Shown here piece after piece: positions 6,686 to 59,176 of a DNA stretch of 64,000 nucleotides; position 1 is the first letter of the stretch, and each line of letters opens with the position of its first letter. The notes beneath the pieces are model-generated. The model did no database searches and was not told where the DNA came from. It worked only from the letters and a program-made list of their open reading frames with translations. A program made the position numbers and the translations under genes. Source of the DNA: Narcine bancroftii (taxonomy: Eukaryota); contig NC_091478.1 of assembly GCF_036971445.1 (NCBI RefSeq), positions 76,260,001 through 76,324,000 of the forward strand, given 5' to 3'.

Positions 6686-7510
6686 TCATTTTCTTCTTTT
6701 TCTTTGGCTTGGCTTCACGGACGAAGATTTATGGAGGAGGTAAATGTCCACGTCAGCTGCAGGCTCGTTTGTGGCTGACAAGTCCGATGCGGGACAGGCA
6801 GACACGGGTGCAGCGGTTGCAGGGGAAAATTGGTGGGTTGGGGTTGGGTGTTGGGTTTTTCCTCCTTTGCCTTTTGTCAGTGAGGTGGGCTCTGCGGTCT
6901 TCTTCAAAGGAGGTTGCTGCCCGCCGAACTGTGAGGCGCCAAGATGCACGGTTTGAGGCGATATCAGCCCACTGGCGGTGGTCAATGTGGCAGGCACCAA
7001 GAGATTTCTTTAGGCAGTCCTTGTACCTTTTCTTTGGTGCACCTCTGTCACGGTGGCCAGTGGAGAGCTCGCCATATAACACGATCTTGGGAAGGCGATG
7101 GTCCTCCATTCTGGAGACGTGACCCATCCAGCGCAGCTGGATCTTCAGCAGCGTGGACTCGATGCTGTCGACCTCTGCCATCTCGAGTACTTCGACGTTA
7201 GGGATGTAAGCGCTCCAATGGATGTTGAGGATGGAGCGGAGACAACGCTGGTGGAAGCGTTCTAGGAGCCGTAGGTGATGCCGGTAGAGGACCCATGATT
7301 CGGAGCCGAACAGGAGTGTGGGTATGACAACGGCTCTGTTTACGCTTATCTTTGTGAGGTTTTTCAGTTGGTTGTTTTTCCAGACTCTTTTGTGTAGTCT
7401 TCCAAAGGCGCTATTTGCCTTGGCGAGTCTGTTGTCTATCTCGTTGTCGATCCTTGCATCTAATGAAATGGTGCAGCCGAGATAGGTAAACTGGTTGACC
7501 GTTTTGAGTT
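6686..7510 (-). mobile_element. Young RTE-clade LINE, 5'-truncated
   Basis: LRWMGHVSRMEDHRLPKIVLYGEL...RYKDCLKKSL, C-terminal CxxC..H..C, purine-repeat tail; near-identical to three other copies. Confidence 0.9.
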
Positions 7511-9466: not shown

Positions 9467-9815
9467 CAGTGATTTTCAAACTGCTCTCTCAACTCACATT
9501 CCAGGTTAAGCAATCCCTATGTCATAAATGTTTTGTGATTAGTAAGGGATTGCTTAAAGTGGTATGTGAGTGGGAAGAAAATGGTTTGAAAACCGCTGTT
9601 TTAATCATACGTAATTGACTTGTTATGTGCACGGTTTCATAACTTCAAAGGAAATGCTTTTCTCAGGCAAAATATTTCAGTAACAATCGGGTGAGGAGCA
9701 GTAATTCTCAGCTCACACTCACATACCACCTTAAGCAATCCCTTTCTAATCACAGAGCACTTATGGCATAGGAAATAGTGGTAAGCGAGACTGGGAAGCA
9801 GTTTGAAATTTACTG
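9467..9815. mobile_element. hAT-type MITE made of palindromic modules
   Basis: cagtgattttcaaac... ends and internal inverted arms (ttaagcaatccct / agggattgcttaa); related to 26876-27033. Confidence 0.55.
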
Positions 9816-17637: not shown

Positions 17638-20600
17638 TGTGGTAAACCACTTTTGTATATTTAATTGCCTGGACATGCCCAATGGTTGACTATACCTGTG
17701 GCTCCTCCCACAGACTCCTGAATAAAGGCGACTATTCCCAGTTCAGGACAGTGAACCAGCATGGATGTGCCTCCATTTTTTTTTGTGAATAAAAGCCTAT
17801 CAATTTTACATAACTTCCAGTCTTTTGGAGTTATTGATGGTGCATACATTTTATTCACAATAGATTTGTGAAGTTGAAAATCGACCCTCAATCACCTGAA
17901 GCCTCCACCAACTTCAAACTTTGGCTGCGTTGCTGCGAAGCATTCCTGCAGGCATCATCTGCCATTGTTTGATCAGAGAACGTCAAGCTGCAGGTACTAC
18001 ACTCCCAGGTCAGGCCCTTGGTATAATCAATGATCAGGGTCATACCCGGAGGCAATAGACATTCTGAAAGACCTGTACCTGAGGAAGGTAAACGAGTCTA
18101 GGCGAGACACCTCCTGGCTACCCAAAAAAGGTGACCCAGGGAAATCAAGCGCTGAGTACCTCCGGGCCCTGCGAACTCTCGGACTGGCCTGCAACTGCAA
18201 GGCCATGATGGGCGTGGAGAACAGGAGGATCTGATTAGAGATATGCATGTTGCAGACATCAGCTCCAACTACATCTGTCAGAGACTGCTGGAACAAAATG
18301 AGCTCAATTTGCAGAGGGCGGTCAGACTAGGTGAGCTCAATTTGCAGAGGTGGCTCTCCAGAATATGGAAGCCTACTTGGCCAACAATGCAGCTGCCTAG
18401 TGGTTGCCCTGAGCGCCACCATCTTGGGACACTCTGCTACCATCCGACCACGGCTGCTGAATTCCACGAGCACCTAAAACCACTATTGCTGTGTCCTACC
18501 AGTGACCCGACCACAACCACTGTACTCCATGAGTACCCAAAGTGCTACTTCTGCGGCCTGAGCAAGCACCCGAAGAAAGGCTGCCCAGCGAAAAACACGG
18601 TTTGCTCTGTGGAAAAAAAGGGCATTACTCAAAGGTGTGAAACTCCAAGTCACCCTAATCCAGCAGTGATGCATCCGGGCCGTCATCTTCGAGACCCAGC
18701 AGTACTGCATGCAAGCCGTGGGCGCCACCATCTTGGGTGCCGCCATCATGTGACCGAACACGCAAACTCTCCACCGCAGCCTTCAGACAGCGACCTGACA
18801 CAGGCCTCCATCATGCTGGATCAAGGTCGTCCTCACCAATTTGCCAGATCGATGATAGACATCCAGGTAATGAATGGCCATGTGACAAGCTGTCTGTTCG
18901 ATAGGAGGAGCATGGAGAGCTTAATCCACCCTGTCATTGTACAGTGCTGCTCCCTCGTGGTTAGGCCAGTGAGTCACAAAGTCTCCTTGGCCTCGAAGAA
19001 CCATACGGCTGATGTGTGTGGCTATTACATAGTGGCCCTGACTGTGCGGGGCACAGGCTACAAAGATTTTAAACTCCTGGTGATGTCATAACTATGCACT
19101 GCCGTGCTACTGGGCCTGGACTTTCACACCTTAAAAGTGTGACGATGGACTATGATGGGCCCCAACCATTGACTTAATCAGCATATCACCAGCTCCCCAT
19201 CCACCTGGAGGACTGCCAATATACCAGTTTTGAGGCAGATGACTGCCTCTACTATTTCCTGAGGGTTCCCTTCAGCATTAACAATGGGATCTCAGTCTTC
19301 CAGTGGGAGATGGACCGAATGATAGACCAGTATGAGCTGCAAGACGCATTCTCATATCTTGTCAACGCCACCATTTGTGGCCATGACTTGCAGGATTATG
19401 ACCCCAACCTCAAAAAATTCCTCCAGACCGTCAAACTTCTTAACATGACATACAATAAGGCTAAATGAGTATTTCACACAACCTGCCTTGACATCCTTGG
19501 CTGCATCATGGAGAACGGAGTAATTGACCCCGACCCCAATCGCATGCACCTGCTTTTGGAACACGCCCTTCCCCACAGCCTCAAAGACCTGAAAAGGTGC
19601 CTGGAGTTCTTTTCCTACTCTGCCGAGTGGGTCCCCAATTATGAGGATAAGGCTTGCCCACTGGTTAAATCTATCTCCTTTCCCCTGACATCAGAGGCCC
19701 ATGCAGCTTTCAGCCGCATCAAGATGGACATTGCCAAGACTACAATGCACATCACTGATGAATCCATCCCATTCCAGGTGGAGAGCGATGCATCCAACTT
19801 TGCTCTCTGACTGCCACATTTAACTAGGCACCGTTACCTTCTTTCCACCACCTTCCAGGGCCCCGAAATTTGACACTTCTCTGTCAGGAAGGAGGCCCGA
19901 GCCATTGTTGAGGCGGTATGGCACTGAAAACACTATCTAGCTGGCAAACAATTTACCTTACTGGCTTTCATGTTCAACAACCGGCAGTGAGGTAAAATCA
20001 AAAAACTATAATATTGAGGTGGAGAATTGAACTTTCCACCTACAATTATGATATCCTGGGAAACTCAATCAGCCCCCTGATGCTCTATCCCATAGAACGT
20101 GTGTCAGTGCTCAAACAGACCAATTGTAAACCCTCCACAGTGATCTGTGCCAACCTGGAGTCACCAGGTTCTTCCACTTTATCATTGAGAATACGACTAT
20201 GACCAGAAACTGCCAGGTCTGTGCAGAGTACAAACCACACTTCCATTGACCAGAGAGAACACAGCTGAAAAAGGCCAACCGCCCCTTTGAATACCTGAGC
20301 ATCAATTTCAAAGGACCCCTCCCCTCATTTGACCACAAGGTGTACTTCCTCAACATCATTGATAGGTACTCGTTTTCTGTTTGCCATCCCCTGCCTGGAC
20401 AAGACAGTTGCACAGTCATCAAGGCCCTATGCAGTCTCTTCACCCTGTTTGTGTTCCCTGCTATATCCATAATGACCGGGGACCCTCCTTTATGAGTGCT
20501 GAGCTGCTCCAGGACCTGCTGGTCAGAGGCATCGCCACGAGCAGAACCATTAGCTACAACCTCCAAGGGAACAGGCAGGTGGAAAGGGAGAGTGCCACAG

Positions 20601-21406
20601 ACTGGAAGGCCATCCTCCTAGCTTTGAGGACTAGAGTCCTTCCAGAGTCCTGCTGGCAAGATGTTCTCTATGAGGCACTCCACTCAATCAGATTATTCCT
20701 ATGTACCCCCATTATGTTGTCCTTCCCCAGGACCCAGCCTGGTTGACGTTCCCAGGGCCAGTCCTACTCTGGAAGCATGTAAGGAGCCATAAGTCCAACC
20801 CACTGGTTGAAAGGGTCCACCTCCTCCATGCCAAACCACATTATGCCTATGTGGCATACTCTGATGGGCACAAGGACACAGTCTTTGTTAGCGACCTGAC
20901 ACCCTCAGGGGTTCTGGAGACTATTACCGATCACCCCGCATCCCCCTCACCTATCGTTACCCATGATGCATCAGGGCCATGGAATGTTACCCCAGCCCCA
21001 ACGGATGGCATGCCAGACTCGTCGCCACGCATCCACCAAACAAACGCCTGCATACAGCCGCCCCAGACTGTCCAGGACCCCATCGCTGTGATGCAGCCGG
21101 GACTGCGACAGTTGTAGCAGCAGATCAGACCACCCGAAAGACTTAATTTATGTTAACATTTAATGCACTTCACGCTTTCAAACTATTTTTAAAAGTAAGA
21201 GGTGAATGTGATAAACCACTGTTTGTATATTTAACTGTCTGGGCATGCCATTGGCTGACTGTACCCGTGGCTCCTCCCACAGACTCTTGAATAAAAGTGA
21301 CTGTTCCAAAGCCCCCTCTCCAGTTCAGTGCTTCCATTCTATTGTGAATAAAAGCCTATCAGTATTACATAATTTCCAGTCTTTTTGAGTTATTGATGAT
21401 GCATCA
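17638..21406 (+). mobile_element. Ty3/Gypsy LTR retrotransposon 1, degraded (LTRs about 17638-17848 and 21207-21406)
   Basis: Paired LTRs beginning TGTG(G/A)TAAACCAC; gag knuckle CYFCGLSKHPKKGC, RT remnants, RNase H VESDASNFAL, integrase; purine tract 21191-21206. Confidence 0.9.
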
Positions 21407-26875: not shown

Positions 26876-27033
26876 CAGTGATTCTCAACCTTTTTTTCCA
26901 CTCACATACCACCTTAAGTAATTCCTTACAAACCACAGAGCACCCAAGGCATCCAATGCCACGGGTGCTCTGTGGTTAGTAAGGGACTATTTAAAGTGGT
27001 ATGTGATTAGGGAAAAAAATGTTGAGAACAATT
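26876..27033. mobile_element. Palindromic hAT-type MITE inserted in a minus-strand CR1 remnant
   Basis: Long imperfect inverted repeat centred near 26955 (accacagagcacc ... ggtgctctgtggt). Confidence 0.65.
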
Positions 27034-30715: not shown

Positions 30716-33700
30716 TGTTACTGTGTAGTGAGCTGAGTGGGCACACAGCGTAGTATTGCGAACCATCAGGATTCTTCATTGGGCACGCGGAGCCATAGGA
30801 CAGACAGCTGGGTACTCACCCATTTAATGGACCACACGCGCTGCATGCAGAGTAAAAGCACGTCAGTTTGCCGAGTCTCCTGCCGGAAGGCGTGGGACTC
30901 TCACTGTGCTTAATTTAAACCTGCCAGTCCCGTGGATCGGCAGCAAACTCATAATGATGTCCCACCCTGTCCCGTGGAGCCCGAGACGTGAGATATATAA
31001 AAGAAGCCTGTAAAGTCTAAATAAAACAGATTTGTGTTGACTAATCTGGTGTATGTGTATTGCTTTAGTAGCTCTACCAAAGTAGCTGCTACAATTGGTG
31101 ACCCCGACTACAAGATTCAGCCGAAGCATGAATCTAGTTATCAAGGACACAACTACAGCCACAATGGCAGTTAATGCGGCAGGACTTCTCTTGCCTCCTT
31201 TCTGGACCCATCAACCTCAGGTATGGCTTAATCAGGCTGAAACCCAATTTCATATTTGTGGCATAATGGCAGAGGACACGAAATTGTGGCATGTTGTAGG
31301 TGCGTTGGACGCTGCTACGGCAGCTAAAGTGAATTTATTTCCAATCCCCCGGCGGACAACCAGTACACCAGGTTCCGCCAATTTCTCCTGGACACACTGG
31401 AATTGACTAGCATGAGCGCGGCATGCAGCTTTTAAATATGGAGGAACTGGGTGACAGGAATCCATTAGAATGAGATGTTCGCATTGGCGGATGGTCATTC
31501 TCATTGCTTAATTTTTGAGACTCTATTCCTATCCAAATGCCCAGGTTGTGTCACAATGCCAATAGCTGACATGGATTTCCGCCATCCCCATGATGTGGCC
31601 CGTGGGCTGACAGACTCTACCGTACTCCAATGCAACAGTCTGCTCACATACAGCCTGTTTTCACAGCAGATACATCTCCCATGTCAGACGAACCTCCTGT
31701 GTCCGCGGTTCAGACAAAGAAGGAAGAACGTGCTGACGGGCGGCGAGAATGGTGATTTTACCATCGTCGGTGGGGGACAAAAAACCTATAGATGTGTCCC
31801 CGCCATGTAGCTATTACAGAAAAAAGTCGGGAAATGGAAAAGCTGGCTGCAAGTAGTGACCTAGGCAGCTGGCACAAGTACTGGCCTACTGTATCTTCAA
31901 GATGGTGCTGGTAAGCGCAGGTTTCTCGTAGATACGGGTGCTGAGGTCAGTTTGCTCCTGCCAACCTATTTTGAAAAGACACAAAAGCCACAACACCTGG
32001 CTCTTCAAGCAGCAAATGGGACTATCATTCCCAACTTTGGCACACAAAGGATCACGATTGGGAAAGGAGGGGCGATATTCCATTGGAATTGCATCTTGGC
32101 TTCCGTTGCATAGCTCATTTTGGGTGCAGATTTTTGAAGATCCCATGACTTGCTAGTAGACGTGAAGCAGAGGAAATTAGTTCATGCCACCACTTTTCAA
32201 ACATACCCGTTGGTAATGCAGCAAAGGGAGAATTTCCCAACTCAGGGTACATACCCTGCACAAAGACACCTATGCTGCCCTACTCGTCAAATTTCCCGAT
32301 ATTCCCTCTCTTAATTCCAATACCTCCAAACGTCCCATTACATAGACACTTCAGGCCCGTCGATTTACACCAGGGCTCGTCGTCTTCTGCCTGATAAGCT
32401 GCAGCAGGCAAGGGCAGAATTTACTACAATGGAGGAATTAGTCCTTAGGCATCGCCATTACATATGGTACCTAAGAAAACAGGTGGATGGAGACCCTGTG
32501 GCGATTATTGTAGGCTCAATAATATAACTACCCCTTGAAGATACCTCATCCCTCATTTACAAGATTTTGCTGCCCATCTGCACAATTGCTATGTTTTCTC
32601 CAATGTTGATCTTGTCAAGGGATACCATCAGATCCCAGTCCATAATGATGACATTCCTAAAACGGCAATTATTACCCCTTTCGGGTTTTTTGAATTTCTT
32701 AGGATGTCATTTGGGTTGAAAAACGCCGCTCAAACATTCCAGTGTCTTATGGAGGCTTTGGGCAGGGATTTAGAGTTCGCTTACATCACCTTAGATGACG
32801 TCCTCATAGCGAGTCAGACTGAGTAGGATCACCACCTGCATTTATGCCGCCTATTCCAATGGCTGGAGGAATTCGGTCTTACCATCAGCCCTAGCAAATG
32901 TCAATTTGGCAAGTCCACCATTGACTTCCTGGGACACAGGATCACAGCCAACGGTGGCTTTCCCTTATCCAGCAAAGTAGACGCAGTCTGTGCTTTTCCA
33001 AAACCTACCACAGTTAAGAGACTGCAGAAATTCTTGGGCCTGATAAACTTCTATCACCGGTTCATTCCAGCAGCTGCTGACATTCTTTGACCACTGTTTC
33101 AGATTCTCACCACAAAGCACAGGCAGGTTACCTGGACAACAGAGGCAGAGGTTGTGTTTACAACTGCCAAAGACGCTTTGGCCAATGCAACAATGCTCGC
33201 CCATCCTAATCCTGACACTTCCCTGACACTTAACACTGATGCCTCAGATACGGCCGTGGGTGCAATTCTTGAGCAGTCCATCGATGGCCATTGCCAATCC
33301 CTCGCTTTCTTTCACCGACATCTATGGAGATGAAATATAGTGCATTTGATCAGGAACTGTTGGCACTGTACCTAGCCACACAACACTTCCAATGTTTTGG
33401 AGGGTCGGCATTTCACTGTGTTTACAGACCGCTCGTTTTTGCCTTTAGCAAAATAACGGATCTATGGTCGCCCAGGCAGCAGTGTCACTTGTCATACATT
33501 TCCAAATTCATGACAGATGTGTCCCATGTCTCGGGTAAAAACAATCTTGTGGCTGATATGCTGTCCAGACAGACTAAATCATATGCAGGGTGGCAATGAT
33601 ATTCCTGAATTAGCCAGTGCACAGGCTATGGACCCCGATGTTCAGGCATTCGGTAAGGCCATTACTAACCTGGACATACAACAGGTGGCACCACAACTGG

Positions 33701-35217
33701 GCGCTCCAACCCTACTTTGTGACTACCTTAGACTGGTGATTCCGGCATCTTGGAGGTGACGCCTTTTTGACCAGGTACACAGTTTGTCTCATCCATCCAT
33801 CAGAACATCCGTCAAGCTCATGTTGAATAAATATATATGGCATGGACTGAAAAAAGATGTCATACAATGGGCTCGCACATATACCTCCTGCCAAACTTCC
33901 AAATTCAGCGGCACACCAAGGCCCCTCTTCAACAATTCCTGGTGGTACACCAGCAGTTTGAACATGTGAATGTAGACCTGGTCAGACTATTGCCAGTATC
34001 TCAACACATGAGATACATCTTAACAGTCATAAACGTTTCATGTGCTGGCCAGAGGCCATCCTGTTGCCATTCAGTGGCACTGACACATGTGCCAGAGCAT
34101 TCATTGTCAATTGGATCTCTAGATTTGGTGTCACGACACACATAACTTCAGATCACGGAGCACAATTCATCTCTACGTTATGGACTGCCTTTGCATGCTT
34201 TTGTGGCACACAACTGCACCACACCACAGTATATCAACCAAAGTCCAACGTCCTTGTTGAACATTTCCACCAACAACTCAAGTCCATACTTAAGGTCCGA
34301 CTCACTGGTCCCAATTGATTTGATGAGTTACCATGGGTTCTACTGGGTGTGCACATGGCTCCCAAGGAAGATTTGCCTGCATCATCCGCAGAGATGGTTT
34401 ATGGTACAGTTCTTTCAGTTCCAGGGGACATTCACTTCGCATCTAACTCTGACCTGGACTTCCTTCAGCAGCTTTGACGTGGTGTCACAGTCAGTAAACC
34501 TGTTCCAACCATGTGGCATGGAACTCCTAAACAACACGTGCCCCTAATGCTCCTTGACGCTTTGTTTTTGTAAGCAGTTCCCAGGAGCACTGTTACAACG
34601 ACCATATGAGGGCCCTTTCCGCATGATTAAGAAGGTCAAGGTTGTATATACTTTGGACAATGGGGGGCATTCACAAATGTTCAATGTGGACAGACTCAAG
34701 CCTGCCCTTGTGGATCCCACTTCACCCATTTTTGCCCCCAGCCCAGGCGGCGAGGATGTCCACCTAGGTGCTTGCAGCCAATGTATTGGTTTCTGGCGAC
34801 GGTTCGGGGAAGGGGGGGGGGGGGTGGTGTAGCAGCCGTGTAGCAGGCCGAGTGGGCGCAGAGTGTGGTATTGCAAACCATCACTGGAGTGGTTCTTCGG
34901 TGGGCACATGGAGCCATAGGACAGACAGCCAAGTACTCGCCCATTTAATAGACCCCACGCGCGCAATGCTGCATGCCAAGTTACGGAACATTGTTTGCTG
35001 AGTCTCCTGCCAGAAGGTGCGGAACTCTAACCATGCTTAATTTAAACTTGCCGGTCCCATGCGGTGGCAAACTCATAATGATGTTCCACCCTGTCCCATG
35101 AAGCCTGGGATGTGAGATATATAAAAGAAGCCTGTAAAATCTAAATAAAACAGTCTTGTGTTGACTAACCTGGTGTATGTGTATTGCATTAGTAGCTCTA
35201 CCGAAGTAGTCGCTACA
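30716..35217 (+). mobile_element. Ty3/Gypsy LTR retrotransposon 2, near full length, frameshifted (LTRs about 30716-31093 and 34828-35217)
   Basis: Paired LTRs ending gctaca; PBS TGGTGACCCCGAC (31096-31108, complementary to the tRNA-Trp 3' end); gag LPPFW, protease FLVDTGAEVS, RT LDDVLIAS, RNase H TDASDTAVGA, integrase, G-rich PPT. Confidence 0.92.
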
Positions 35218-35839
35218 ACTGATTATTTTTAAAACTCCTAAAATATTTGAAGTATTATTTAAAAGCAACCAAGTTTAAAAGACAGTTTGAGCACTCCAAA
35301 CACCTGGCTGAAATACTTATATTTTTTATATTCAACAAGGGATGATTTTATCACTCGGTGGTAATTAATAGCAATCTCTTTGAGATGATGTCTTGCTATT
35401 GGCATCAACATCATCCAATATTGAAATGTTTTCAAACAACAAACAAAATCACGTTTCCCACTGATTGAGCTGCTCTCTGTTTTGGGGTTAGTTATTTGGT
35501 TTTCATTGTGACTCATTTTTCTCCTTTTTGACTTTTTTTAAAATTGTGTCATTTTAATGATTAACTCATGATTTTGGTGTAGTTTCTGATTTGAAGATGC
35601 CCTTCCCTGATCTGAAATGCATCGTCATAGTTTTCTTGGAAGGAATACGGTTGATTTTGTTGTGTGAACTTTTTCTGTGGATTGTTTCTTGATAAATTAT
35701 CGTCAGTTATGTTCATACATTGTACATTATGTACTCCAAGCAGAGACAATTGAAAACTTAAATTACATTTTTGTGTTTCAGTATTTATTTCATTTATGGT
35801 AGGATTAGTGCAGCCTGCTGTTCTACCACTGACATGGTA

Positions 35840-36450: not shown

Positions 36451-36967
36451 GAGGGTATATATCTTGTAATTCCAGCAAAGTTGGCAATAAAACACTGGAC
36501 TTTATTTGTGGAAGGAAGCTGAGAGGAAATACAGAATTTCCTTCATCTGCTCAACGTAAGAATTCTGTTAATATTAGGAATCTACAGAATCTGCAATGGG
36601 TTAAACTAGCAATATGCAAACACTGATGTGAATAAATAGTGCTATTGATACACAGTGGTTCTGGAAAAATACAATGACACAGCACTGAGCTCTTTTGTTT
36701 TCTTTCGGATTGCCAAAGCTCACAAATACAGCAACTAATTACTGCAAGTGGGAATCTGAAATGGTACAGGTACCTAGTAGGGTTGTGCAGTAGCAGTAAA
36801 TTGTAAGAGGCTCTTTGGATTTCTGACAAGCAAATAAAAAGTGAGTAACTGTTAATGCCCTTAGGCATTTAATATCGTAATCATTTTATATTGAATCTTT
36901 GTAATGTTTAATCTTTCTGTGCATTTGTTCGTAAGATACAAAGCAGTGATTTGTTTCGTCACATTGC

Positions 36968-37381
36968 CAGAATGGAGGACCATCGCCTTCCCAAGATCGT
37001 GTTATATGGCGAGCTCTCCACTGGCCACCGTGACAGAGGTGCACCAAAGAAGAGGTACAAGGACTGCCTAAAGAAATCTCTTGGTGCCTGCCACATTGAC
37101 CACCACCAGTGGGCTGATATCGCCTCAAACCGTGCATCTTGGCGCCTCACAGTTCGACGGGCAGCAACCTCCTTTGAAGAAGACCGCAGAGCCCACCTCA
37201 CTGACAAAAGACAAAGGAGGAAAAACCCAACACCCAACCCCAACCAACCAATTTTCCCCTGCAACCGCTGCAACCGTGTCTGCCTGTCCCGCATTGGACT
37301 TGTCAGCCACAATCGAGCTTGCAGCTGACGTGGACTTTTACCCCCTCCATAAATCTTCGTCCGCGAAGCCAAGCCAAAAAG
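36968..37381 (+). mobile_element. Young RTE LINE, 5'-truncated, with a 30-bp target-site duplication
   Basis: acaaagcagtgatttgtttcgtcacattgc at both 36938-36967 and 37382-37411. Confidence 0.92.
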
Positions 37382-39699: not shown

Positions 39700-39900
39700 A
39701 ACGTCACTGACAGAATGGGATGCATTACACCTCAAGTCATTTTATATATTTTACATAATCCTTTGAGCACACTCCCGTTGAGCATTCAAGCTGGTTGCAT
39801 CACTGTCTGGTACATTCAAGACAAGAAAAAACTCGAGTTAACTCAGCCTGCGACATCACAGGCACCAGATTTCAATCCATCAAGGGGACAGCTACAAGAG
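39700..39900 (+). mobile_element. Rex1/L2-like LINE remnant abutting the tandem array
   Basis: SIQAGCITVWY; similar to 4380-4500. Confidence 0.5.
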
Positions 39901-42389
39901 GCCATTGACTTTGTTGACCACACTCTTGTTGCCAGCTCTAGATAATGTGTGCCTTACCCGGGTCCAGGTCATTGACCATGTTGACCACACTCTTGTTGCC
40001 AGTCTAGATAATATGTGCCTTACCCGGGTTCAGATCATTGACCATGTTGACCACAGTCTTGTTGCCAGTCTAGATATGTGCCTTACCCAGGTTCAGATCA
40101 TTGACCATGTTGACCACAGTCTTGTTGCCAGTCTAGATAATATGTGCCTTACCCGGATTCAGATCATTGACCATGTTGACCACAGTCTTGTTGCCAGTCT
40201 AGATATGTGCCTTACCCGGGTCCAGGTCATTGACCATGTTGACCACAGTCTTGTTGCCAGTCTAGATAATGTGTGCCTTACCCGGGTCCAGGTCATTGAC
40301 CATGTTGACCACACTCTTGTTGCCAGTCTAGATATGTGCCTTACCCGAGTCCAGGTCATTGACCATGTTGACCACACTCTTGTTGCCAGTCTAGATAATA
40401 TGTGCCTTACCAGGGTTCAGATCATTGACCATGTTGACCACACTCTTGTTGCCAGTCTAGATAATATGTGCCTTACCAGGGTTCAGATCATTGACCATGT
40501 TGACCACACTCTTGTTGCCAGTCTAGATATGTGCCTTACCCGGGTCCAGGTCATTGACCATGTTGACCACACTCTTGTTGCCAGTCTAGATAATATGTGC
40601 CTTACCCGGGTCCAGGTCATTGACCATGTTGACCACACTCTTGTTGCCAGTCTAGATAATATGTGCCTTACCAGGGTTCAGATCATTGACCATGTTGACC
40701 ACACTCTTGTTGCCAGTCTAGATATGTGCCTTACCCGGGTCCAGGTCATTGACCATGTTGACCACACTCTTGTTGCCAGTCTAGATAATATGTGCCTTAC
40801 CCGGGTCCAGGTCATTGACCATGTTGACCACACTCTTGTTGCCAGTCTAGATAATATGTGCCTTACCAGGGTTCAGATCATTGACCATGTTGACCACACT
40901 CTTGTTGCCAGTCTAGATATGTGCCTTACCCGGGTCCAGGTCATTGACCATGTTGACCACACTCTTGTTGCCAGTCTAGATAATATGTGCCTTACCCGGG
41001 TCCAGGTCATTGACCATGTTGACCACACTCTTGTTGCCAGTCTAGATAATATGTGCCTTACCAGGGTTCAGATCATTGACCATGTTGACCACACTCTTGT
41101 TGCCAGTCTAGATATGTGCCTTACCCGGGTCCAGGTCATTGACCATGTTGACCACACTCTTCTTGCCAGTCTAGATAATATGTGCCTTACCCGGGTCCAG
41201 GTCATTGACCATGTTGACCACACTCTTGTTGCCAGTCTAGATATGTGCCTTACCCGGGTCCAGGTCATTGACCATGTTGACCACACTCTTGTTGCCAGTC
41301 TAGATAATATGTGCCTTACCCGGGTCCAGGTCATTGACCATGTTGACCACACTCTTGTTGCCAGTCTAGATAATATGTGCCTTACCAGGGTTCAGATCAT
41401 TGACCATGTTGACCACACTCTTGTTGCCAGTCTAGATATGTGCCTTACCCGGGTCCAGGTCATTGACCATGTTGACCACACTCTTCTTGCCAGTCTAGAT
41501 AATATGTGCCTTACCCGGGTCCAGGTCATTGACCATGTTGACCACACTCTTGTTGCCAATCTAGATATGTGCCTTACCCGGGTCCAGGTCATTGACCATG
41601 TTGACCACACTCTTGTTGCCAGTCTAGATAATATGTGCCTTACCCGGGTCCAGGTCATTGACCATGTTGACCACACTCTTGTTGCCAGTCTAGATAATAT
41701 GTGCCTTACCAGGGTTCAGATCATTGACCATGTTGACCACACTCTTGTTGCCAGTCTAGATATGTGCCTTACCCGGGTCCAGGTCATTGACCATGTTGAC
41801 CACACTCTTCTTGCCAGTCTAGATAATATGTGCCTTACCCGGGTCCAGGTCATTGACCATGTTGACCACACTCTTGTTGCCAGTCTAGATATGTGCCTTA
41901 CCCGGGTCCAGGTCATTGACCATGTTGACCACACTCTTGTTGCCAGTCTAGATAATATGTGCCTTACCCGGGTCCAGGTCATTGACCATGTTGACCACAC
42001 TCTTGTTGCCAGTCTAGATAATATGTGCCTTACCAGGGTTCAGATCATTGACCATGTTGACCACACTCTTGTTGCCAGTCTAGATATGTGCCTTACCCGG
42101 GTCCAGGTCATTGACCATGTTGACCACACTCTTGTTGCCAGTCTAGATAATATGTGCCTTACCCGGGTCCAGGTCATTGACCATGTTGACCACACTCTTG
42201 TTGCCAATCTAGATATGTGCCTTACCCGGGTCCAGGTCATTGACCATGTTGACCACACTCTTGTTGCCAGTCTAGATAATATGTGCCTTACCCGGGTCCA
42301 GGTCATTGACCATGTTGACCACACTCTTGTTGCCAGTCTAGATAATATGTGCCTTACCAGGGTTCAGATCATTGACCATGTTGACCACC
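39901..42389. repeat. Tandem array of 38 units of 63 or 66 bp, each a copy of the TMPPE exon-1 3' end plus 5' splice site plus start of intron 1
   Basis: Minus-strand unit: GTGGTCAACATGGTCAATGA(T/C)CTG(A/G)ACCC(T/G)G/GTAAGGCACAT(ATT)ATCTAGACTGGCAACAAGAGT. The terminal unit is the real exon end. Higher-order periods of 195 and 324 bp. Confidence 0.97.
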
Positions 42390-43036
42390 ATTTGAAGTTT
42401 GCTCCTTCCCACTGTGGGCCCCAGGTGGATATCGGACAGCAACACCATCTTCAGCTGATGGAATGACTGAGGCAGCTTGTGGAGAGGAAGCTCCACCCGT
42501 TTGACGACGGGGGGCAGGCGGCCGTTGAGGAGCCCCAGTACGGTGCAGACCAGGGTGAAGGAGAGGGCGACGGCGAGGGCCAGGCCTGGACGGGCCGAGG
42601 GCGTCCGGCTGACGCAGCCGCGGGCCCGGTCCAGCGCCCCGCACGCCAGCAGGCTGAAGAGGAGGAAGACGTAGGCCCCGAGGCAGGAGTAGCAGAGCAG
42701 GGAGAGGGGGTGCGGCTCCTCGGACACCAGCGTGAGGAGGCAGGCGGAGCTGGAGTGGGCCAGGAGGAGGAAGGCCGCCAAGGTGGCTCTCCAGGCCCGC
42801 AGGCCCCGGCTGGGAGGTCCGGGCCGGGGGCCGTGCAGGCCAGCCGCGGCCTTGCTCCAGATGTAGTGCGTCGCGGCGGCCATGAGGGTGTTGAGGAGCA
42901 GCAGGGCCTGCACCCGGAGCACCCTCAACAGCGTGAGCTGCTCGATGCGCCCGCGGACGCTCCAGGCGGCCGCCATGGACACAAGCACGGCGGCGGCGGC
43001 CAGCGACACGCCGGCCTGCCACGGCAGCCTGCCCAT
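42358..43036 (-). CDS. TMPPE: TMPPE coding exon 1 (transmembrane segments plus LLSDIHLGP motif I); full CDS 1287 nt, 428 aa
   Basis: Hydrophobic N-terminus followed by LSDIHLGPTVGRSKL; CTG/GTAAGG donor at 42357; all five exons join in frame with all calcineurin-like phosphoesterase motifs. Confidence 0.93.
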
Positions 43037-43794: not shown

Positions 43795-43877
43795 GTCAGG
43801 ATGGCCGAGCGGTCTAAGGCGCTGCGTTCAGGTCGCAGTCTCCTCTGGAGGCGTGGGTTCGAATCCCACTCCTGACA
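43795..43877 (+). tRNA. tRNA-Leu (CAG)
   Basis: GTCAGGATGGCCGAGCGGTCTAAGGCGCTGCGTTCAGGTCGCAG...GGTTCGAATCCCACTCCTGACA; 83 nt, intact A and B boxes, long variable arm, TTTT at 43885-43888. Confidence 0.97.
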
Positions 43878-44369
43878 CAGCTCGTTTTGAATCTTTTTAA
43901 ATGTGAGTCCTTGACATGTTGATTAGCATTCAAAAATTGGGATGCAGGTTGTCATGAAAACATTATTATTTTGCGGCAGCATCACAGTGCAAACATTCAT
44001 TTTAGCTACCTTACAAAAAAAAAATTAGTGAACGAAAAGTCAAATTAAGTCATTGATCCTTTGGAATCTGATGGCAGCCCTGAAGAAGCTGACCTTGTGC
44101 TGCTTAGTAAGCTCGACTATTGATGTAAGCTGTATTTAGATCATGTAAAACGTTGTTTATTATTTTATTGCTAATTTGCAGTCACATCCTTGTTTTTAAC
44201 TCCTCACAGTTTGTTTGTTAAAACAAAAAAAGTCTACTCTTGTCAACAGTCTTTTTGAACAGTGTGCCATTTGTGCAGACCCAAAGTGTGGACACAAAAT
44301 TCTCAACAATATACCGGATGCCTCTTCACTCCTGTCACAGTTCATACAAATTCCCAGGAGTTACATTCA

Positions 44370-46325: not shown

Positions 46326-47083
46326 CTTTCTTCTTTGGCTTGGCTTCGCGGACGAAGATTTATGGAGGGGTAAATGTCCAAGTCAGCTGCAGGCTCGTTT
46401 GTGGCTGACAAGTCCGATGTGGGACAGGCAGACACGGTTGCAGCGGTTGCAGGGGAAAATTGGTTGGTTGGGGTTGGGTGTTGGGTTTTTCCTCCTTTGC
46501 CTTTTGTCAGTGAGGTGGGCTCTGCGGTCTTCTTCAAAGGAGGTTGCTGCCCGCCGAACTGTGAGGCGCCAAGATGCACGGTTTGAGGCGATATCAGCCC
46601 ACTGGCGGTGGTCAATGGGGCAGGCACCAAGAGATTTCTTTAGGCAGTCCTTGTACCTCTTCTTTGGTGCATCTCGGTGGCCAGTGGAGAGCTCGCCATA
46701 TAACACGATCTTGGGAAGGCGATGGTCCTCCATTCTGGAGACGTGACCCATCCAGCGCAGCTGGATCTTCAGCAGCGTGGACTCGATGCTGTCGACCTCT
46801 GCCATCTCGAGTACTTCGACGTTAGGGGTGTAAGCGCTCCAATGGATGTTGAGGATGGAGCGGAGACAACGCTGGTGGAAGCTTTCTAGGAGCCGTAGGT
46901 GGTGCCGGTAGAGGACCCATGATTCGGAGCTGAACAGGAGTGTGGGTATGACAACGGCTCTGTATACGCTAATCTTTGTGAGGTTTTTCAGTTGGTTGTT
47001 TTTCCAGACTCTTTTGTGTAGTCTTCCAAAGGCACTATTTGCCTTGGCGAGTCTGTTGTCTATCTCGTTGTCCATCCTTGCAT
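46326..47083 (-). mobile_element. Young RTE LINE, 5'-truncated
   Basis: 230-aa ORF EIDNRLAKANSAFGRL...; (aaag)n tail. Confidence 0.92.
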
Positions 47084-47527: not shown

Positions 47528-47610
47528 TGTCAGGAGTGGGATTCGAACCCACGCCTCCAGGGGAGACTGCGACCTGAACGCAGCGCCTTAGACCGCTCGG
47601 CCATCCTGAC
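47528..47610 (-). tRNA. tRNA-Leu (CAG)
   Basis: Reverse-complement copy, one difference from the first in the variable arm; TTTT terminator at 47522-47519. Confidence 0.97.
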
Positions 47611-48430
47611 GCTGGGTGCGAATTGCGGCCGCACTTTATTTCTCCATTCACGATCACGAGTGGGTTGGCAATCTCTGCGTCTTCTACTTACGGCGCCCCG
47701 CTCCCTGAGCGAATTTGCGGAAAGGGGAAGGTGACAGCATGATTTGAGGCCGGCGCCTCGTCTTTGTCCGCGGCTGACCCATGACGCGGCCACCGGGGGG
47801 CGGGCCACCTATCATGGCGCCTCGGACGCTGAGGCGGGAAGAGGTGGCCGACTTGGTGGCCTTGGCTCTGCGCTCCGGGCTCACGGAGCGGGACATCGCG
47901 CGGCTGCCGTCGGTGCCTAAGCTGCTGGGGAGCTGGGGCCCGGGCAGCCAGGAGGAGGGGCGGGGGGCGGCGGCGGCGCTCGTCCTCCTGGCCTTCCTGC
48001 TGGTCCTCCTGGGCGGCCCCGCGGCGCGGCGCCTCTGGCTCCGGGGCAACGAGGCCTGCGTGCTGGGCTTCTCGGAGCTGCGCAACCCGTTCCGCCGGCC
48101 GTTGGACTGCCGCTCCTGCAGCAACGTGACGGCCGTGGAGCGGAGGAGCAACCTGAGCCACGAGGAGTTCCTGCGGGCCTACGCCTACACCATGCAGCCG
48201 GTGGTGGTGGAGGACGGCCAGAGGAACTGGTCGGCCAGCGACGTCTTCACCTTCCACTTCTTCTCCCAGATCTACAGCAGCGGCAGCGGGGTCCTGGACA
48301 GCAGCGGCAGCGAGTGCCAGTTCTTCCCCTACGACACCGACTTCCGCAGCCTGAGGGATGTGTTCGGCATGGAGGCCGGCCGTGTGGGCATGCAGGGCGA
48401 CGCTGAGCCCTGGTACATCGGATGGTGCGT
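47600..48430. promoter_or_regulatory. CpG island / promoter and first exon of the JmjC-like gene
   Basis: Dense CpG; GC box (ggggcggg) near 47797. Confidence 0.75.
47814..48424 (+). CDS. Uncharacterised membrane-anchored JmjC/cupin-domain protein, exon 1 (alternative in-frame ATG at 47781)
   Basis: MAPRTLRREEV...AAAALVLLAFLLVLLGG (TM)...DCRSC...EEFLRAYAYTMQPVVVED...FFPY...WYIG; donor TG/GTGCGT, phase 2. Confidence 0.88.
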
Positions 48431-48586: not shown

Positions 48587-50183
48587 TGCTGGCCCATCAA
48601 CAATCCACAGAAGGCCGAGTAGGGAATCAGGCTTTTAATAGCTAAAGACTGGGACACTATCAAACAATCATCCGCCTGATCAAAGTAAAAGGGTGGCAAT
48701 GCAAGGGGCTGTGGTTAGGATCGGTTTCAGGAGGCCAATCACAGTGTAACAGGGGTTTACCACATTCACCCCCTCCTCTTTACAAAGAATCCTGCAGGGT
48801 GAGAAAAAGAGAGTGAAACAACTGGACACACAAACACATTTACAGGTAAGTCTATCCGGGGTGGTGGGGGGGGGGGGGGTCTCCTCTGTGCCAGTGAGCT
48901 GCGTGGCAAAGGTTGGGATGGGCTGCCGTAACATCGTGATCAAGTTGAGGCCTGTTAACTGGTGGTGGAAGGGAGTGTGGTGCACGAGTAGCCTGAGGTA
49001 AGGGGCGGTCAGCTGCACGTTCGGGGACCCCCTAAGGTTGGAGTGGGGGGGAGAGTGTGGAAAGTCGGTGGTGGTCGAGGGGGATCCTGAATCAAGAACC
49101 ATATCTTCTTGCCCATCGGGAAACGTAGGCATACTGGGGGTTGGTGTGGAGGATGCAGACCCTCTTTACCATTGGGTCAGTCTTAGATTGCCTGACGCGC
49201 TTACGGGGCAGGATGGGTCCCGGTGAGGTTAGCCAGGTGGGTGGCGTAGTCCATTCATGAGGCATGCTGTTGGTGGCCTTACGTAAAAGTGACCGAACGG
49301 AGTGAAGTGCACTTGAGAGGACTTCCTGCCAATGGAGATGTGGAGACCCCATTACCTCAGTGCCAGGAGGATAGTCTTTCAGACTGTGGCATTTTCCCTT
49401 TCCACTTGCCCATTACCCCAGGGATTGTAGCTGGTGGTCCTGCTCGTGGCAATGCCTCTGGCCAACAGATACTGCAGCAGCTCATTGCTCAAGAATGATG
49501 TACCCTGGTGACTATGGATGAAGTCAGGGTACCCAAACAGCATGAAGATGCTATAGAGAGCCTTGATAACAGTGGCAGTGGTAATGTCAGGCCAAGGGAT
49601 GACGAAGGGGAAATGGGAATATTAATTAATAACAGTAAGGAAATAGATATTCTGGTTAGAGGAGGGGAGGGGACCCTTGAAGTCGATGCTGAGATGCTCG
49701 AAGGGGCACGTTGCCTTGATAAGATGCACCTTGTCTAGTTGGTAGAACTATAGTTTGTATTCAGTACAGACCTGACAGTTTCTAGTCATTGTCTGAATCT
49801 CCTCGACAGAGTAAGGTAGATTCAGAGATTTAACAAAATGGAAAATTGGTAACTCCAGAATGACAGAGGTTATTGTGAAGAATCTGTCTTTTGTCCATTT
49901 GAAGACTAACACAGGTTCCATGGGATAAGGCATCTGAGGACTCATTAAGTTTCTCTGGTTTTAGATACTGCTCCATAATCATTTGAAAATTTTAGCTATT
50001 AAAATGGATGTACCATCAATAATTCACAAAAACCTGTGTGGTGAAATAAACAAGCTTTTAAAAGCTAACTATCAAACAATCATCCACCTCCTTCAGAGCA
50101 AAGGTAAAAGGGTGGCAATGCAAGGGGTTATGGGTAGGATTGGTCTCTAGCAGCAAATCATGGTATAACAATGGTTTACCACA
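48587..50183 (-). mobile_element. Internally deleted Gypsy element 3 (related to element 1); only the integrase region remains between LTRs
   Basis: LTRs about 50006-50183 and 48587-48764, both starting TGTGGTAAACC on the minus strand; PPT at 48765-48781; integrase peptides similar to 20200-20900. Confidence 0.8.
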
Positions 50184-58924: not shown

Positions 58925-59176
58925 CTGCGCCTCACAGTTGGGCGGGCAGCAACCTCCTTTGAAGAAGACCGCAGAGCCCACCTCACTGACAAAAGACAAA
59001 GGAGGAAAAACCCAACACCCAACCCCAACCCACCAATTTTTCCCTTGCAACCACTGCAACCGTGTCTGCCTGTCCCGCATCGGACTTGTCAGCCACAAAC
59101 GAGCCTGCAGCTGACGTGGACATTACCCCTCCATAAATCTTCGTCCGCGAAGCCAAGCCAAAGAAAGAAAGAAAAG
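58925..59176 (+). mobile_element. Young RTE LINE, short 3' piece
   Basis: Matches the 3' end of the other copies; (aaag)n tail. Confidence 0.88.

Follow-up and report, generated by a model that had tools for sequence, protein, structure and literature searches.

Probable self-priming with a poly(A) signal inside the primer in an animal Ty3/Gypsy clade without a chromodomain

The window, the whole stretch of 64,000 nucleotides of Narcine bancroftii DNA analysed here, contains a decayed Ty3/Gypsy LTR element (element 3, 50183-48587, minus strand) in which the segment directly behind the 5' LTR, at the primer-binding site (PBS) position, shows complementarity to the LTR of the same element. What would prime the minus-strand DNA synthesis of such an element, and what does it mean that the complementary stretch of the LTR includes a poly(A) hexamer? 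As we argue below, element 3 and another element of the window, element 1, are probably decayed members of a Ty3/Gypsy clade that is widespread in animals and whose minus-strand synthesis would be primed by its own RNA.

Element 3 and its neighbours in the window

Read on the minus strand, element 3 consists of the 5' LTR (50005..50183), the post-LTR segment (49991..50004), a gag remnant, a deletion, an integrase remnant, a polypurine tract and the 3' LTR, in this order. The terminal CA of the 5' LTR is degenerate, which leaves its 3' end uncertain by one base. The remnant of the gag start (MEQYLKPEKL..., 49900..49976) retains about 25 codons with the N-terminal pattern of the full-length relatives, and the large internal deletion follows next to it; gag, PR, RT, and RH are mostly deleted. 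The integrase remnant (49100..49870) has stop codons inside, matches Pfam rve with an E value of 1e-13 in 49370-49780, and shares 70% identity with its best protein relatives among the matches listed. The polypurine tract (48765..48781) was read directly from the sequence, and the 3' LTR occupies 48587..48764. As the LTRs are only 80.8% identical (135/167 columns), with 14 transversions to 18 transitions, and as no target-site duplication was seen in the flanks of the element, the two LTRs may derive from different copies, which would make element 3 a recombinant or chimera. Taken alone, element 3 is a weak witness, because it is decayed, perhaps recombinant, and its 5' leader folds no better than shuffled sequences (z -0.53).

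The original prediction described a perfect complement of the LTR behind the 5' LTR of element 3, and we could confirm it: the post-LTR segment at 50004-49991 (TTTTAATAGCTAAA), which is without TGG, reads as the exact reverse complement of the 3' LTR at 48646-48633. This 3' LTR arm (48633..48646, 14/14 positions complementary) contains ATTAAA at 48639-48634, a hexamer noted in the earlier description, and continues with GCCT. The arm in the 5' LTR (50056..50069), which is the candidate self-primer, is complementary at 12 of 14 positions. The single mismatch ascribed to it previously is correct for the 13 nt considered then (50068-50056), and over 14 nt (50069-50056) there are two. The hexamer of this copy is TTTAAA, not ATTAAA. 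Directly 3' of the 5' LTR arm lies a second helix (50032..50055, in which 50055-50050 pairs with 50037-50032); it has 6 bp including G-U, and is not significant alone (p 0.13). In a control for chance, 2 of the 25,418 25-nt windows of the 64-kb stretch shared at least 14 bases with the 3' LTR of element 3, and both go back to a single match, an unrelated one at 35673.

Element 1 (17638-21406, plus strand) represents another family of the same clade and has both LTRs and a post-LTR complement; its integrase region is identical to that of element 3 in 482 of 690 columns (70%). Its post-LTR segment (17849..17864) is complementary over 16 nt to its own LTR arm. In the 3' LTR (21207..21406), the arm with AATAAA at 21338-21353 is a perfect 16-nt complement, and in the 5' LTR (17638..17848), the arm ends at 17794 and is complementary over 12 nt. 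A right-aligned comparison of the two 3' LTR arms, that of element 1 and that of element 3, shows 5 differences in 14 positions, and each of these is matched by the post-LTR segment of the respective element, as foreseen by the claim that the sequence changes between the two while the pairing is kept. The LTRs of element 1 are 89.2% identical (4 transversions versus 16 transitions); the 5-bp sequences that flank the element disagree at two positions, in a pattern of CpG decay. Another AATAAA/TATA-like site of element 1 lies 72 nt upstream of the arm end and could indicate a transcription start further upstream. In contrast, element 2 (30722..35218, plus strand) has a TGG-type PBS at 31096 and an LTR complement of at most 7 nt, and thus serves as the contrast for which it had been proposed. 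We take its PBS to be a tRNA-Trp site and the element itself to be CsRN1.

Element 3 is antisense to a host gene and follows the splice donor of a coding exon at 47778-48423 (plus strand) at a distance of about 165 nt. This GC-rich exon has a 216-codon frame without a Pfam match, and an Atlas search with it returned unnamed clusters of eukaryotic proteins, in one of which 16% of the members carry Cupin_8; presumably, it resembles C6orf89-like genes. About 170 nt before this exon lies a tRNA-Leu(CAG) (47528-47610, minus strand), which forms an inverted pair with another one at 43795-43878 (plus strand), 3.65 kb apart and 99% identical over 83 nt. Additionally, the window contains a tandem array (39879-42400) in which a unit of 63/66 nt occurs at least 37 times; a higher-order period measures about 195 nt, one frame is open for 874 codons, and the Pfam matches are repeat artefacts. 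A young dispersed repeat occurs in four copies, 96-98% identical and in both orientations (6703-7347, 36958-37378, 46369-46971, and 58927-59175), and two MITE-like short elements with inverted ends of about 60 nt lie at 9516-9772 and 26891-27017.

The duplex in related elements

The integrase of element 3 matched 167 proteins at an E value of 1e-30 or better, among 238 candidates; the 120 of them that are listed were named P0001-P0120. The named hosts among the matches listed are rays and sharks (identity up to 70% in these two groups), the shrimp Palaemon, the crinoid Anneissia, the snail Biomphalaria, the nematode Trichinella, the rotifer Seison, and two insects. Full-length members of the clade have a single gag-pol ORF, mostly of about 1,130-1,340 aa, in elements of about 4.0-4.5 kb. 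PR, RT, RH, and IN domains were all found in each of the 20 full-length relatives scanned with Pfam, and the gag-PR-RT-RH-IN order, confirmed in P0040, together with the LTRs and the polypurine tract, identifies the clade as Ty3/Gypsy (Metaviridae). The closest solved chain to a clade protein is that of Ty3-G Gag-Pol (E 6e-69). The 18 Pfam families matched by the 20 full-length relatives include no chromodomain; the integrase C-termini carry low-complexity tails. Two Cys/His boxes were seen in Gag in 7 of the 7 relatives shown, and the catalytic motif of RT is Y-x-D-N in 48 and Y-x-D-D in 7 of 55 proteins among the relatives listed. A structure-cluster search with Gag (ESM Atlas) returned unnamed clusters only, and no relatives were found in the viral contigs scanned. 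Five loci of this animal clade (L081-L085) are located in bacterial genome bins, to which they were most likely carried as host DNA.

Loci of the clade were retrieved with an alignment of the Gag N-terminus of 16 clade proteins. The resulting set of 85 loci, comprising 80 of 173 confirmed metagenome loci and 5 loci in genome contigs, falls into 39 families, 37 of which have enough upstream DNA, and the best copy per family was scored. An unconstrained search for inverted repeats gave spurious matches of 6-9 nt in decayed copies and was replaced by a constrained one. A perfect Watson-Crick arm of 12-18 nt in the same geometry was found in 28 of the 37 families, versus 1 of 337 control windows. 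With mismatches allowed, 12 of 14 pairs were reached in 63/80 loci versus 5/250 controls; one of these 63, L019, is out of register and probably a chance match. No convincing duplex was found in L019, L028, L031, L035, L058, and L085, some of which look truncated or decayed. Judged from these sequences, the duplex is a real and clade-wide feature.

Related families could have lacked the complementarity, an outcome that the original prediction had named as evidence against itself; the 28 families with a perfect duplex of 12-18 bp show that this is not the case. Its proposal that pairing over a poly(A) hexamer is common to relatives is borne out by the same families and by the presence of AATAAA or ATTAAA in 27 of 33 arms. 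On the other hand, the restriction of the pairing to elements with LTRs starting with TGTGGTAAACC has to be given up: the LTRs of the relatives start with TGATG, TGTTG, or TGTCG, and their gag sequences are only 40-79% identical.

The column set used below has 33 members: the 28 families, L043, L057, and L077, which have the same geometry with a 9-nt perfect core, and the 5' copies of elements 1 and 3. The six families without a convincing duplex, all with upstream DNA, and the two families without upstream DNA were dropped from it, and the anchors of L059 and L029 were moved by hand, by 3 and 1 nt, respectively, to the common register. The end of the LTR is fixed by 5-bp target duplications in L003, L004, L005, L013, and L016. 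The PBS-side segment starts one base after the end of the 5' LTR, and the LTR arm ends 24-72 nt upstream of it. The 3' edge of the arm is nearly constant (AAA, followed by GCC in most members) and is suggestive of a cut site. A TGG tRNA-type site near the post-LTR position was found in none of the 33 members, and 31 of the 33 arm sequences are distinct. Priming by a tRNA or half-tRNA was rejected, since the post-LTR segment of each family matches its own LTR. Among the 17 relatives in which both LTRs were scored, the 5' LTR matched the PBS better in five and the 3' LTR in none.

Covariation, the second helix, and the poly(A) hexamer

Positions -4 to -13 are paired in 29-33 of the 33 members, and none of 2,000 column permutations was as good at any of them. 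Pairing is weaker at positions -14 and -15 (26/33 and 18/33, p 0.006 and 0.04), and is at the background level from -16 to -20. Outside the hexamer, 7.5 of 8 PBS positions find a partner in the LTR of the same family, versus 3.8 in the LTRs of other families; at least 7 of these 8 pairs form in 29/33 own combinations versus 28/1,056 cross-family ones. On a gag tree of 32 tips (31 families and element 1, with identities of 40-79%, median 53%; element 3, which has no gag, was left out) there are at least 89 double changes over 13 duplex positions. In L030 and L044, which have no canonical hexamer nearby, the arm ends with GAAGA and the PBS starts with TCTTC; this double change falls within an AAA that does not vary otherwise.

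Covariation had been taken as a sign of a selected RNA structure. The covariation of columns is indeed present, but in the LTR/PBS helix it need not mean compensatory selection, because the primer arm could re-copy the PBS in each replication cycle; the matching changes may thus be copied rather than selected pair by pair. The 429 cells of the duplex core comprise 417 Watson-Crick pairs, 1 G-U pair, and 11 mismatches, the Watson-Crick share being inflated by the choice of the set for its duplex (best copy per family, perfect arms). Among the 31 families that have the geometry, 28 form 12 or more pairs with no G-U at all. A core with almost no G-U pairs is what a PBS copied from the primer would be expected to show.

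The second helix starts at the base after the arm. It has at least 4 bp in 27 of 33 members, with a mean of 4.3 versus 2.8 bp in shuffled sequences, and is significant alone in 8/33. Its DGGY partner is present in 28/33 members, as compared with 11.0 in shuffles (at most 17 in 500 shuffles) and 13/30 upstream controls, and its first pair is G-U in 20, G-C in 6, and A-U in 4 members of the set. As both arms of this helix lie within the LTR, it is not explicable by the copying of a primer. To all appearances, it is a selected RNA structure at the presumed cut site. A third, 'pretzel' helix of the leader with U5 was predicted thermodynamically in only 1 of the 33 members.

A canonical hexamer is present in the arm of 27/33 members (AATAAA in 10 and ATTAAA in 17), and another one is found within 150 nt upstream in 3 members and in the loop of the second helix in 3. 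Apart from the 5' copy of element 3, five arms in the set are without a canonical hexamer, and in L020, L030, L032, and L049 the duplex is kept although there is none. In L001 (upstream of 997), the arm ends with TTTAAA, and the loop of the second helix has a canonical ATTAAA 5 nt later, as if the poly(A) signal had moved out of the primer while the duplex remained. A poly(A) hexamer directs cleavage 10-30 nt downstream, a general rule that we applied to the hexamers of the clade. In eight of the nine elements folded, the predicted probability that the hexamer is unpaired is 0.00-0.06 for the 5' copy versus 0.27-0.95 for the 3' copy; in element 3, the ninth, the order is reversed (0.26 and 0.11, respectively). 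The leaders of element 1 (z -4.0) and L013 (z -4.2) fold better than shuffled sequences, and those of L003 (z -0.98) and element 3 do not.

No TATA box was found 30-55 nt before the arm end in 30 members, and in 18/33 an AG(T/C/A) motif, which we take to be initiator-like, lies 11 nt before it. Start site and primer length are not in simple agreement: the initiator-like motif is at -11, yet the pairing covaries to -13. Transcription may start at -13/-14 or at variable positions; alternatively, the partner of the PBS would be the arm's 3' copy, in which those bases exist. For the young relative L003, three sequencing runs of guessed kind contained 5-12% of its words, and their contigs, mostly 90-95% alike, showed no start, end or poly(A) junction, a result that speaks neither for nor against either possibility.

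Probable priming by the element's own RNA, and its alternatives

A PBS formed by the complement of the element's own LTR, with no tRNA site, is what characterizes self-primed elements, and it is what the clade has. The best reading of our data, to which we assign a probability of about 0.7, is that of a chromodomain-less, single-ORF animal Gypsy clade with Tf1-like self-priming, in which the poly(A) signal lies inside the primer. Transcription would start at about the 5' end of the arm, and the 5' arm would fold onto the PBS to form a duplex of 13-14 bp. RT/RNase H would then cut at the junction of the arm and the second helix, and the released arm RNA of 11-14 nt would prime the minus-strand DNA. 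The first strand transfer would use the 10-30 nt of R that are left before the poly(A) site, and the plus strand would later copy the primer, which would keep the PBS and the arm matched. A likely side effect is that the duplex would hide the poly(A) signal at the 5' end but not its 3' copy, which is not followed by a PBS.

The hiding could also be the sole function of the duplex, with another RNA acting as the primer. The poly(A) hairpin of HIV-1 hides a poly(A) signal, and in the clade, the frequency of AATAAA/ATTAAA in the arms, the presence of the partner only behind the 5' LTR, and the predicted occlusion in 8/9 elements would all fit such a role. Nevertheless, the start of the partner coincides exactly with the PBS position, so that no tRNA site is left, and no single host primer would fit 31 distinct arms. 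Moreover, an occluding hairpin could tolerate G-U pairs, of which there is 1 in 429 cells (in a set selected for perfect arms), and the duplex persists in the four families mentioned above without a canonical hexamer. On balance, we consider it unlikely that the duplex only hides the signal. About as doubtful is self-priming from the 3' copy of the arm, in which the PBS would pair with the U3/R junction at the 3' end of the RNA, in an end-to-end circle or with a dimer partner, and the RNA would be cut just after the hexamer and extended. The bases 2-3 nt 5' of the initiator-like motif, which covary, would be absent from a transcript starting at -11 and present in the 3' copy, the pairing tapers at -14 to -16 without a sharp end, and in elements 1 and 3 the PBS matches the 3' LTR better than the 5' LTR. 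However, these data are equally explained by transcription from -13/-14 or from mixed sites, and the better 3' match comes from two decayed copies only, as opposed to the 17 relatives scored in both LTRs, among which the 3' LTR is never the better one. A primer extending into U3 would also give the plus strand no stop, which would be troublesome for the second strand transfer. If priming from the 3' copy were true, it would be a route unlike both tRNA priming and the 5'-end priming of Tf1, and would tie 3'-end formation to the start of DNA synthesis clade-wide.

That the match is a by-product without function, due to chance in AT-rich DNA or to an ancestral local inverted duplication, seems very improbable. 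The arms are AT-rich, and element 3, decayed as it is, has a leader that folds no better than shuffles. This is countered by the control values of 1/337 and 5/250 as opposed to 28/37 and 63/80, by the fixed geometry, and by the double changes, at least 89 in number, across families whose gag sequences have a median identity of 53%. Self-priming from the 5' arm remains the reading that we prefer.

In Tf1, the primer consists of the first 11 bases, which RNase H removes once they have paired with the PBS (PMC7175516), and priming requires a three-helix structure (bioRxiv 10.1101/2022.12.06.519325). Like Tf1/Tf2 of Schizosaccharomyces pombe, Tj1, and Tf1/sushi elements, the clade has no tRNA site, a PBS complementary to a segment of its own LTR on the scale of 11 nt, a helix by the 3' end of the primer, and the Ty3/Gypsy domain order (PMC7175516, PMC4600332, bioRxiv 10.1101/2022.12.06.519325). 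Unlike Tf1/sushi, its proteins are without a chromodomain (20/20), its RT mostly has Y-x-D-N (48/55 listed), and its Gag has two Cys/His boxes; the duplex is 13-14 bp long and ends in a poly(A) hexamer, and the second helix is mostly a local hairpin that is not adjacent to the PBS, with the third 'pretzel' helix in 1/33. By chromodomain and three-helix 'pretzel', the clade would not be counted among Tf1/sushi. Self-priming has also been predicted in plants, for Tcn1 (Gypsy) and TAR (Copia), with which the clade shares an LTR complement of at least 10 bp, 0-5 bp after the 5' LTR (PMC6317226). By these predictions, self-priming arose outside Tf1/sushi before; Tcn1 is a chromovirus relative and TAR belongs to a Copia lineage, and the available part of the text describes no overlap with a poly(A) signal (PMC6317226).

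Two other groups were considered as matches and rejected. In the dictyostelid Skipper, the TGG site is replaced by a pyrimidine-rich segment, but the element has a chromodomain and, in the part of the source available, no complementary LTR region (PMC5006619). The flatworm Saci2/lennie clade resembles ours in the single Gag-Pol ORF and the variable PBS, but Saci2 has 4-bp target duplications and a tRNA-assigned PBS (PMC12471100), as opposed to 5 bp and no TGG here. One of our relatives, P0117, comes from Biomphalaria. Cigr-1 of Ciona intestinalis, presumably also present in molluscs, has short LTRs, about 245 bp in length, and a single ORF of about 3.6 kb, features that fit the relatives found here and are not diagnostic. 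Cigr-1 families are listed in Biomphalaria (PMC6238403). That the clade may be Cigr-1 is a tentative lead, and the open literature contained nothing on Cigr-1 priming.

As to whether the pairing has been described, which the original prediction left open, the mechanism has its precedent in Tf1/sushi, and in the open literature we found neither self-priming in this animal clade nor a primer containing a poly(A) signal; subscription papers or Repbase entries could mention either. Most likely, the mechanism is self-priming, which is a known one, and the distinctive part of this variant is the overlap of the primer and the poly(A) signal. Self-priming has been demonstrated in fission-yeast chromoviruses and predicted in a few other lineages, to which the clade would add a large chromodomain-less group, probably of separate origin. 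A single 14-nt stretch appears to act as transcription start, primer, and poly(A) signal, which would be a simple answer to the problem of ignoring the 5' poly(A) signal. The fixed geometry yields exact, testable predictions for the start, cut, and poly(A) sites. Such elements would be independent of host tRNAs, and annotation programs that require a tRNA PBS would overlook them.
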